DNA of 35,147 nt from Thermoplasmatota archaeon (GTDB lineage: Archaea; Thermoplasmatota; Penumbrarchaeia; Penumbrarchaeales; Penumbrarchaeaceae), in NCBI GenBank assembly GCA_029762535.1, contig JARVGK010000006.1:78703-113849 (forward strand), given 5' to 3'. Made by a program: the position numbers and the translations under genes. Under the pieces are notes generated by a model, which worked only from the letters and a program-made list of their open reading frames with translations, had not been told where the DNA came from and did no database searches. This document shows positions 1,701 to 3,151 of this stretch, in pieces. Positions within the stretch are counted from its first letter, which is position 1. Each line of letters starts with the position of its first letter.

Positions 1701-2174
1701 TCACTTCCTTCTTCTCAGGACCAGGAATGCAGCCGCCAGGCCGCCGAGCCCCAGGAATATGGCCCCACCGCAGCAGCAGGCGCTGTCCAGCCCCGGACCG
1801 ATATTAACAGTGATCGAGAAGGGACCGGTTCCGGAAACCATCAGGAACAGCTCCTTGGAGGACGTTCCCTCGTTTATGTGCTCGTAGGATTCTCGATCCC
1901 CTTCACTGTCAAGGACGAACGTGAAGAACGGGTCATCCTCCTGGTCATAACCGCCATAGGCCCTTATCGAACCCTCTCCGAGCAGCTCGAACGTGATGGT
2001 GAACTTCATGTATGGATGGACGTCGAGGGAATACCATTCCTCGCTTTCCTCCACTTCCCCCTCCGTCACCCCAACGAAGATCTTCTGGGCGTTCTCCATG
2101 CTGTCGTTGTCAAGTCCCATAGCGGAACCGCAAAGGAGCGTTATAACCAGGACAGATACTGCGAACCTGTTCAA
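1701..2174 (-). CDS. Hypothetical secreted protein with C-terminal Cys-rich membrane anchor
   Basis: TTG start, signal peptide (MNRFAVSVLVITLLCGSAMG), acidic beta-rich body, C-terminus ACCCGG + hydrophobic helix + RRRK. Co-oriented with wecB and 4 nt from it. Confidence 0.8.
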   Translation of the reverse strand: MNRFAVSVLVITLLCGSAMGLDNDSMENAQKIFVGVTEGEVEESEEWYSLDVHPYMKFTITFELLGEGSIRAYGGYDQEDDPFFTFVLDSEGDRESYEHINEGTSSKELFLMVSGTGPFSITVNIGPGLDSACCCGGAIFLGLGGLAAAFLVLRRRK

Positions 2175-2189
2175 ATTCCCACCGCACCT

Positions 2190-2261
2190 TCATCGCCTAA
2201 GGATTACATCCATTTTGCGCTGGGCCTCACTCCATAGATGCAGCCTGTAGCTCGCGTCCAT
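2190..2261 (-). CDS. Putative 23-aa micropeptide MDASYRLHLWSEAQRKMDVILRR (below ORF-track cutoff)
   Basis: ATG at 2259-2261 with TATA-like CTTAAATA at 2284-2291, the same 23-30 nt spacing as leaderless genes elsewhere in the window. RKMDVIL resembles the KRMEIVL motif of a neighbouring peptide. Confidence 0.4.
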   Translation of the reverse strand: MDASYRLHLWSEAQRKMDVILRR

Positions 2262-2308: not shown

Positions 2309-2488
2309 CTAATCATCATCCGAGCTTTCGAAGGAATCGGTCTCTGTACCGAAATCCCTGTCATCGAAGCTTTTCCTCGCACATGCGGGACATATCCTTG
2401 ATAGCTCCGGAGGCCTCTGCAGTCTGATGTATATATTATCCTCAAAATATTCACCGCATAGTTCGCAGCGTATCTTGAATCCCGACAT
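2309..2488 (-). CDS. 59-aa zinc-finger microprotein (CELC ... CPAC, acidic tail), not in ORF track
   Basis: Hand translation MSGFKIRCELCGEYFEDNIYIRLQRPPELSRICPACARKSFDDRDFGTETDSFESSDDD. Two CxxC pairs. TATA box ATTTATAA at 2511-2518, 23-30 nt upstream of the ATG. Confidence 0.8.
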   Translation of the reverse strand: MSGFKIRCELCGEYFEDNIYIRLQRPPELSRICPACARKSFDDRDFGTETDSFESSDDD

Positions 2489-2520: not shown

Positions 2521-2616
2521 CTAATCAAGGGCCCTGAAAGGATATGACAAGAGGACTATCTCCATCCTCTTCACGTGCTCCCTGTCATATCGAGCGACCT
2601 TATGGGTAACATCCAT
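2521..2616 (-). CDS. Putative 31-aa micropeptide MDVTHKVARYDREHVKRMEIVLLSYPFRALD
   Basis: SD-like AGGGGTCA 4 nt before the ATG. Shares EIV(L/I)LSY with the upstream peptide through mostly synonymous codon differences. Confidence 0.5.
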   Translation of the reverse strand: MDVTHKVARYDREHVKRMEIVLLSYPFRALD

Positions 2617-2631
2617 GTACTGACCCCTTGA

Positions 2632-2697
2632 CTATCTTCGGCCGTTGTAGGATAGTATCACTATCTCCCTGAATGGATCCTCATCGGTCCGCTGCAT
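2632..2697 (-). CDS. Putative 21-aa micropeptide MQRTDEDPFREIVILSYNGRR
   Basis: Consensus TATA box TTTATATA 23-30 nt upstream of the ATG. EIVILSY motif shared with the next peptide. Confidence 0.5.
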   Translation of the reverse strand: MQRTDEDPFREIVILSYNGRR

Positions 2698-2719: not shown

Positions 2720-2727
2720 TATATAAA
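2720..2727 (-). promoter_or_regulatory. Archaeal TATA box (TTTATATA) for a leaderless transcript starting near 2697
   Basis: Consensus TATA sequence at the same spacing seen for the cupin, metK, nmd3, J-domain, Lrp and PfkB genes. Confidence 0.7.
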
Positions 2728-2761: not shown

Positions 2762-2929
2762 TCAGGTCAAGAACCTGTAATTGGTAAGGTTATCCCTTAT
2801 CTTCTTCTCAGTTATCATGGTAAGGATCTCGACGGCCTCCTCCCTTGTTCGGCCTGCGGCCTCGGTCTCCAATTCCGGGCAGCGGGCTATGAACGTCCCG
2901 CCCTCATTGACCACCTGTACGTCGAACAT
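2762..2929 (-). CDS. HicB-like antitoxin N-terminal domain protein (55 aa, no DNA-binding domain)
   Basis: MFDVQVVNEGGTFIARCPELETEAAGRTREEAVEIL matches the HicB pattern (F/Y-x-A-x-C-P-E/D-L...G-x-T-x-E-E-A). Start moved from 3016 to 2929 based on the domain boundary and a TTTTTATC box upstream. Confidence 0.7.
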   Translation of the reverse strand: MFDVQVVNEGGTFIARCPELETEAAGRTREEAVEILTMITEKKIRDNLTNYRFLT

Positions 2930-3151
2930 CCATTCATTCAACCGGTAATAGAGGATAAAAAGGTTGTCATCGGATTTCCTTAGATGAAAAACGGGTGTTA
3001 CAAGTATGTAAATCATTGTCGAAAGATGTTAAAATGACCTTTTATCGCCCTGGAATGAGAGGTGATAATCTCATGGAATGCGCAAAGATTCAAAAAGGGG
3101 TCCGATATCCCATCGTTCGATGAAAAGCGAAGGTAAAGGGGTTATGCCGGA

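Follow-up and report, generated by a model that had tools for sequence, protein, structure and literature searches.

Background

In HicAB type II toxin-antitoxin systems the toxin HicA is held by the antitoxin HicB, whose N-terminal domain has a partial RNase H fold. According to a review, HicB binds HicA and neutralises it through this N-terminal domain (PMC11594946). The subject of this report is a locus of a Thermoplasmatota archaeon in which two tandem short open reading frames (ORFs), here termed ORF A and ORF B, encode peptides with the shared core E-I-V-[IL]-L-S-Y. It lies within a stretch of 35,147 nucleotides (nt; GenBank assembly GCA_029762535.1, contig JARVGK010000006.1, positions 78,703 to 113,849 of the forward strand), which was analysed as a whole and is called the window below, with all coordinates counted from its first letter. 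As in HicAB, the upstream gene of this locus is homologous to the N-terminal domain of HicB, and a small gene on the same strand stands at the place of HicA. In contrast to HicAB, no HicA is present, and the HicB-like protein has no DNA-binding domain and ends ~20 residues short of canonical HicB. What is predicted downstream is a peptide of 21-36 amino acids (aa) with no similarity to HicA, with a promoter of its own and in up to six copies per locus.

Two other kinds of described peptides invite comparison. SUMO-interacting motifs and Hsp70 substrate peptides (of the N-R-L-L-L-T-G type) are short motifs that bind by beta-strand addition. The peptides studied here appear to share with them an aliphatic core of four to five residues, charged flanks and an unstructured chain, a general likeness that does not extend to the conserved Tyr-Pro behind the strand, which the known motifs do not have. 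Some archaeal small proteins are also known to bind and modulate a larger protein. Ribo-seq and peptidomics surveys of Haloferax volcanii (PMC10117724) and Methanosarcina mazei (PMC11456600) have catalogued small proteins which, like the products predicted here, come from unannotated ORFs well under 70 aa and are often leaderless. By analogy, our peptides resemble in kind such conserved leaderless archaeal micro-proteins, although the family is unrelated to them in sequence, is known only from metagenome-assembled genomes (MAGs), and is distinguished by a single predicted beta-strand motif and by tandem arrays of paralogues.

Identification of the micro-protein family

The features on which the analysis is centred are the following:

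2632-2697, minus strand: ORF A, a 21-aa micro-protein with a charged N-terminus, the core R-E-I-V-I-L-S-Y and the stop TAG (2632-2634)
2647-2667, minus strand: the core E-I-V-I-L-S-Y of ORF A, where variation in the family falls almost entirely at third codon positions
2521-2616, minus strand: ORF B, a 31-aa micro-protein with the core M-E-I-V-L-L-S-Y-P-F and the stop TAG
2539-2562, minus strand: the core E-I-V-L-L-S-Y-P of ORF B, included in the codon comparison across the family

The two ORFs lie in one frame, and the spacer between them consists of the TAG at 2632-2634 and 15 further nucleotides, 18 nt in all. Codon by codon, their cores comprise two identical codons, four that differ synonymously and one Ile/Leu change, with 14 of 21 nt identical; beyond the core, ORF A continues as R-E-I-V-I-L-S-Y-N plus three residues and ORF B as M-E-I-V-L-L-S-Y-P plus five. 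A preliminary description of the window, made from its letters, had drawn attention to this pair of peptides, and all its statements on their sequences hold, the codons being as it quoted them. It had also proposed a six-frame genome search with the pattern [ED][IV][VI][IL]LSY, which in the translation of the whole 2.96 Mb genome retrieves two matches, namely ORF A and ORF B. As both of the genome-wide matches sit here, against a rough chance expectation of ~0.4 per genome, the pair of cores is more than chance would be expected to produce.

Since no relative is near enough for DNA alignment of this stretch, we inspected the region downstream of homologues of the neighboring HicB-like gene (an 84-aa ORF as called mechanically) in other genomes of the same archaeal family. 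Small ORFs with the same core were found behind these homologues in three genomes (G003, G008 and G013), and these served to make a profile, in two rounds, for searches genome by genome. This yielded matches with per-genome E-values of 1e-10 to 1e-13 in G003, G006, G007, G008, G012 and G013, while the family hidden Markov model run on the genome of the window recovers ORF B at E = 3e-13 to 2e-11 and ORF A at E = 4e-8 to 6e-7. Later inspection added diverged copies in G016 and G023, where the motif matches are weak (E = 0.2-0.45 per genome). Twenty further small ORFs with the core R-[EQ]-I-V-[IL]-L-[ST]-Y-P are present in eight other genomes of the same Thermoplasmatota family, the core being looser in the longer and the diverged forms. 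Local BLAST and later inspection also revealed cousins of 53-65 aa that carry [ST]-R-E-I-[ILV]-[LV]-F-R-Y-P, and G008 and G013 have 40-aa ORFs with the same L-L-S-Y-P-F ending as ORF B. The consensus emerging from these sequences is a variable charged N-terminus, a basic residue followed by R-[EQ]-I-V-[IL]-L-[ST]-Y-P, and, in the members whose stops were listed, a stop after 2-8 residues; basic residues flank the motif in nearly all members. Both ORF A and ORF B show the features that define the family, i.e. a short ORF of ~21-65 aa with the core followed by an early stop.

The proposal of the preliminary description that these are paralogous peptides under selection for their amino-acid sequence receives its decisive support from the comparison with the eight other genomes. 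Across the six core codons of 13 members from seven genomes, the mean pairwise differences at codon positions 1, 2 and 3 are 1.08, 0.00 and 3.67, respectively. The codon differences in the core divide into 246 synonymous and 72 non-synonymous ones, all of the latter being Ser/Thr or Ile/Leu exchanges; it must be held against these counts that they overstate independence, the relatives being few and kin. The third-position pattern is seen both between genera and between paralogues within one genome. Had the nucleotides been kept and the reading frame lost, the coding interpretation would have been undermined; the relatives show the opposite. On the basis of these comparisons we consider it very probable that ORF A and ORF B are genuine coding sequences under selection, and both would accordingly be predicted to be translated.

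Expression signals

Two sequence elements bear on how the tandem ORFs might be expressed:

2720-2727, minus strand: archaeal TATA box TTTATATA, an exact consensus match that ends 22 nt before the ATG of ORF A
2623-2629, minus strand: Shine-Dalgarno-like AAGGGGT, 6 nt before the ATG of ORF B

Promoter motifs of this sort are the support for expression of the family. The octamer TTTATATA occurs 147 times in the genome when both strands are counted, and its placement 22 nt ahead of the ATG suggests a leaderless transcript for ORF A; leaderless translation is described as established in archaea (PMC7261190). Before ORF B no TATA box of its own is seen, and this, together with the Shine-Dalgarno-like site, suggests that it is probably co-transcribed with ORF A as a second cistron. 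Most members of the family have TATA-like boxes 12-45 nt before the putative start, at 20-24 nt in seven of 20, ORF A included. Those members in which the box lies nearer to the first ATG have an internal Met further downstream, which may be their true start.

Readthrough and RNA-level interpretations

The shared frame of two ORFs only 18 nt apart, along with local inverted repeats and three copies of the sequence GRAGATAGT, favors a very different interpretation, in which the locus is a single gene, decayed or read through and split by a TAG, or else a non-coding RNA or operator that merely resembles coding sequence. The preliminary description had raised both a 58-aa readthrough product and an RNA or operator role. 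All copies of GRAGATAGT in the 35 kb window fall within 2555-2668 (0.59 expected; 4 of 100 shuffles reach three), two of them being R-E-I-V codons and the third overlapping the stop of ORF A. The hairpin at ~2541-2591, which had been called strong, does exist, but its stability is not unusual: the segment 2536-2596 folds at -18.3 kcal/mol with z = -1.36, a stability matched by 21 of 200 shuffles. Likewise, the 196-nt putative transcript is no more stable than its shuffles (z = -1.07). When 13 member ORFs and the segment with the hairpin were folded, 14 stretches in all, the z-scores lay between -1.74 and +1.73 and no structure was shared. There is no Rfam match in the window, and variation at third codon positions rules out constraint at the nucleotide level.

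The readthrough product fares no better. TAG behaves as a normal stop, ending 212 of 1270 long ORFs (17%), and no match to PylS above cutoff is found in the genome. In the relatives the tandem copies lie in different frames with their own stops and their own promoters, so that a two-repeat readthrough product is not conserved. Nor is the TAG at 2632-2634 conserved, for all 18 listed motif ORFs of the relatives end in TGA; as TGA is the commonest stop, ending 70% of the long ORFs here, the contrast with the TAG of ORF A and ORF B may only reflect stop usage. Taken together these observations largely refute the single-gene and RNA interpretations. One candidate parent gene was considered separately: by eye, ORF A and ORF B recall the two ends of a 72-76 aa protein of G003, G008 and G013. 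HMMER finds no match to it in the stretch at E <= 1, the peptides are separate ORFs in the relatives, and the candidate was rejected.

Phyletic distribution

The family is lineage-restricted. It is limited to a single family (f1) of the class, in which it occurs, diverged copies included, in nine of 24 genomes and six of seven genera, and it is absent from all 13 genomes examined from other families of the class. A degenerate DNA pattern searched against 185,579 species genomes retrieves five MAGs titled Thermoplasmatota, Thermoplasmata or Thermoplasmatales and three chance bacterial matches. The same pattern finds nothing among viral contigs. Of its three matches in metagenomes, the two that were checked are not member-like. 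Among 5.8 billion predicted proteins there are nine matching proteins, all unnamed and none viral, and an exhaustive search of 1.84 billion representatives recovers five true members. Pfam contains no match for the ORF A and ORF B peptides, Pfam and PHROGs searches with the peptides, their cousins and the neighbors in the surrounding island returned nothing useful, and the ESM Atlas gave no usable match. The peptides fit no described family.

Association with a HicB-like gene

Immediately upstream of ORF A lies the following gene:

2765-2929, minus strand: HicB-like (UPF0150-like) protein of 55 aa from an internal Met; the mechanical ORF has 84 aa and spans 2762-3016

The first 29 residues of the mechanical ORF are not conserved, orthologues align only from the Met at 2929, and a TATA-like TTTTTATC is found 23 nt before this internal ATG; most likely, the gene starts there. 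Comparison of the family with the canonical HicB that is paired with HicA gives an hhalign probability of 97.3% (E = 2e-11) over template columns 3-50 of 70. Pfam gives no match for the window protein itself, and the canonical HicB relatives match UPF0150, HicB_lk_antitox and DUF7387 only below the curated cutoffs. A sequence search of the PDB with the HicB-like profile recovers weak matches to TTHA1756 and HicB (E = 0.25-0.35), its top matches being spurious ones to designed repeat proteins. Canonical HicB in the related genomes is directly followed by HicA (Pfam E = 2e-13), and HicA (PF07927) is found only in the relatives G020, G035 and G001. No HicA-like ORF is present in the window locus, which therefore lacks the defining feature of HicAB. 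The HicB-like proteins of f1 end in a hydrophobic residue followed by L/M-T and then TGA, and in alignment they are without the last ~20 residues of canonical HicB; by eye, the missing stretch resembles a final strand, as in T-L-M-T-T-F-E-V or A-I-V-T-T-F-D-V.

The peptide gene occupies the place that HicA has in the canonical relatives. In six genomes from four genera, a peptide gene comes next after the HicB-like gene in the same orientation, with a gap of 64, 69, 50, 40, 100 and 42-72 nt in G000, G003, G008, G013, G023 and G016, respectively, and ORF A has its orthologous position behind the HicB-like gene in five other genomes. The weak motif matches of G016 and G023 sit exactly behind the HicB-like gene, a placement that chance would not give. 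In G008 and G013 there is also a second HicB-like paralogue, with a cousin of the peptides ~250 nt behind it.

Several observations nevertheless weigh against this partnership. The peptide gene of G006 and G012 lies behind a patatin gene, and a search for a HicB-like gene there detected none; conversely, a HicB-like gene is present in G005, G022 and G009, but no peptide could be detected. With six motif ORFs each, G008 and G013 have no more than two HicB-like genes. The peptide genes all possess a promoter of their own, unlike the usual toxin-antitoxin pair, which is encoded in one operon. Finally, when the profile of the peptides was compared with the C-terminal portion of canonical HicB, no similarity emerged; it is visual likeness that suggests the peptide could be a last strand detached from HicB. 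The link between peptide and HicB-like genes is thus repeated, but not obligate.

Predicted mode of action

Structure prediction offers little guidance at the level of the fold. The AlphaFold2 model of a 56-aa cousin has a mean predicted local distance difference test score (pLDDT) of 55.8, with the motif as the one part that is not uncertain and scores highest, and as a whole it is too uncertain to interpret; such a low-confidence fold fits a linear-motif protein and is no proof of one. The HicB-like protein and peptide of G003, modelled without an alignment as a single tethered chain through two in-frame stops, gave a result that is likewise too uncertain (mean pLDDT 41.5). Complex prediction from family alignments of the HicB-like protein and the peptide returned a score of 0.00, which amounts to no verdict and was used neither way.

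As there is no sign of an enzyme or of a stable fold, we read the peptides as linear-motif micro-proteins that would add a beta-strand to a partner, and the view of the preliminary description that they are beta-strand ligands or inhibitors is plausible. In the explanation that we favor, the TATA box before ORF A would drive a leaderless mRNA, and ORF B would be translated from the same transcript by means of the Shine-Dalgarno-like site. Each product would comprise a probably disordered charged N-terminal part, a nine-residue beta-strand motif and 2-8 further residues, and the motif would dock as an added beta-strand on a partner protein and modulate it. Translation, disorder, docking and the identity of the partner are the parts that we infer, and to the full explanation, docking mechanism included, we assign a probability of roughly 0.5. 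The best candidate for the partner would be the shortened HicB-like protein encoded 40-100 nt upstream, which leads the field within this overall reading even though we put its claim well short of even odds.

It is conceivable, more tentatively still, that the two genes represent a new archaeal module in which an orphan, C-terminally shortened HicB domain is combined with one or more beta-strand micro-proteins of 20-36 aa that replace HicA, in arrays of up to six paralogues. The peptide might then complete or extend the sheet of the HicB-like protein in trans, as a split fold, or it might be a minimal toxin or ligand held in check by that protein.

Alternative functions

The main rival explanation is that the peptides are real micro-proteins that act on some other conserved cellular partner, such as an Hsp70-type substrate site (which would suit the hydrophobic core with basic flanks), a PCNA-type pocket (Q-x-x-I-x-x-Y) or a beta-sheet edge of the kind seen in CarA, or that self-assemble via the aggregation-prone strand I-V-I-L-T-Y, a possibility that is doubtful and yet deserves to be taken seriously. 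The peptides of G006 and G012 that stand apart from any HicB-like gene, the surplus of peptides over HicB-like copies in G008 and G013, and the basic residues around the motif all sit well with it. So does the fact that a chance pattern match and the CarA of the same genome carry a very similar conserved strand. This N-domain strand of CarA, G-Q-I-[LV]-x-x-T-Y-P-x-I-G-N, matches some members at 8 or 9 of ~12 positions and resembles the peptide core plus its tail, e.g. T-Y-P-L-G-N. It is the best look-alike of the motif both in the genome and among the chance pattern matches, and was noted at contig C18 of the genome (~21297, minus strand) and at L094. The strand is, however, embedded in an enzyme of ~370 aa with no similarity beyond the motif, and the likeness is likely to be convergent. 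All the candidate partners are suggested by resemblance, and the likeness of the 9-mer to known motifs is weak. With regard to PCNA, the PIP-box reads Q-x-x-[ILM]-x-x-[FYW]-[FYWL], whereas the family has E more commonly than Q at position 1 and, where PIP-boxes require an aromatic residue, Pro at position 8. Another partner would also leave unexplained why the peptide genes adjoin HicB-like genes in four genera.

A cis-acting role is improbable. Known arrest peptides have a conserved C-terminus with a Pro by the stop and a variable N-terminus, and the present family, with its conserved last ~10-15 residues, its Pro close to the stop and its variable N-terminus, displays the same arrangement. 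The ORFs might then be leader or ribosome-arrest peptides that control downstream genes through the C-terminus in the tunnel or through the run of Ile/Val/Leu codons. To our knowledge no such mechanism is known in archaea, which counts against it, and there are no branched-chain amino-acid genes nearby. Leaderless short ORFs have been described as attenuators in mycobacteria (bioRxiv 10.1101/834739), a precedent that counts in its favor. On the other hand, the downstream genes vary (another peptide, a zinc ribbon, a repeat array, a HepT-like gene), the tandem copies each have their own promoter, and cousins of 53-65 aa bear the same motif.

Even less probable is the suggestion of the preliminary description that these are precursors of RiPPs (ribosomally synthesized and post-translationally modified peptides) or of signals. 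The signals would then be secreted ones, and the conserved core would be modified or exported. Short multi-copy genes with a conserved Tyr-containing core do look like precursors. However, as that description had itself noted for the adjacent genes, no modifying enzyme accompanies them: neither within ~10 kb nor in six related loci is there a radical-SAM, YcaO, lanthionine-type or peptidase/transporter gene. The peptides also have no signal peptide. Leaders of RiPPs are usually conserved, whereas here conservation is confined to the C-terminal core, and the N-terminus differs already among species of the same genus. The TAG-split gene or RNA discussed above is the least probable of all these alternatives.

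The surrounding island of small genes

On the side of ORF B, the peptide genes are bordered by further small genes, and then by larger ones, up to the start of the window:

2309-2488, minus strand: zinc-ribbon micro-protein of 59 aa with two C-x-x-C pairs (Zn_ribbon_8 E = 7e-4, below the curated cutoff)
2190-2261, minus strand: 23-aa micro-ORF with the N-terminus M-D-A-S-Y-R-L, representing a second conserved micro-protein family
1701-2174, minus strand: protein of 157 aa, probably secreted, whose N-terminus carries a hydrophobic segment
629-1654, minus strand: UDP-GlcNAc 2-epimerase
78-164: tRNA-Leu, the only tRNA in the window

The zinc-ribbon ORF has an AT-rich TATA region immediately upstream and no homologue in six related loci. 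The M-D-A-S-Y-R-L micro-ORF has a TATA-like TTAAATAT ~21 nt upstream, and its orthologues in G008 and G013 differ by synonymous codon changes. These orthologues, at L074:5332-5433 (+) and L076:6275-6379 (-), have 34 aa and close with a similar but looser strand, Q-I-Y-L-S-T-I-P-F. The wider neighbors in the window include DUF401, a surface protein, patatin, a cupin, SAM synthetase, AdoHcy hydrolase and NMD3, while the related loci contain glycosyltransferases as well as NadE-like and AcpS-like genes, the last two named by eye only. We propose that the extra peptide copies are paralogue expansions in a variable island of small genes beside cell-surface glycosylation genes.

Other components of the island differ between genomes. 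A conserved small protein of 72-76 aa is encoded at L071:3573-3803 (-), L074:5576-5797 (+) and L076:5919-6137 (-), and another of 102-113 aa at L074:4278-4586 (+) and L076:7063-7404 (-). Neither has a Pfam family, and both of these island proteins of G003, G008 and G013 are absent from the window. In G006, a 121-aa ORF just downstream of two peptide genes (L072:4078-4443, minus strand), which is HepT/DUF86-like by eye only, adds a toxin-antitoxin flavor to the island. In G007 (L073:2159-2602) and G012 (L075:4-304), tandem units of 117-119 nt are situated directly behind a peptide gene and upstream of the UDP-GlcNAc 2-epimerase gene, each unit containing a copy of the first ~30 nt of that gene. 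These arrays recall the repeat modules behind the tRNA-Leu at the start of the window, and they may point to a hotspot of integration or recombination.

Implications

ORFs as short as these are missed by gene callers, and only a handful of motif ORFs, none of them named, exist among 5.8 billion predicted proteins. The present case illustrates that a family of micro-proteins from 21 aa upwards can be recognized in raw sequence through synonymous variation between paralogues, and then confirmed in relatives. If the link to the HicB-like genes is true, a widespread antitoxin fold would gain in the peptides a partner of a new kind, and the two genes would furnish a compact, synthesizable peptide-protein pair for studies of beta-strand docking in archaea. 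If the partner is instead a core cellular machine, the family would constitute a natural set of modulatory peptides of an uncultured lineage. In both cases, several genes are added to the annotation of this genome and of eight related ones, in an island that would otherwise be read as intergenic.

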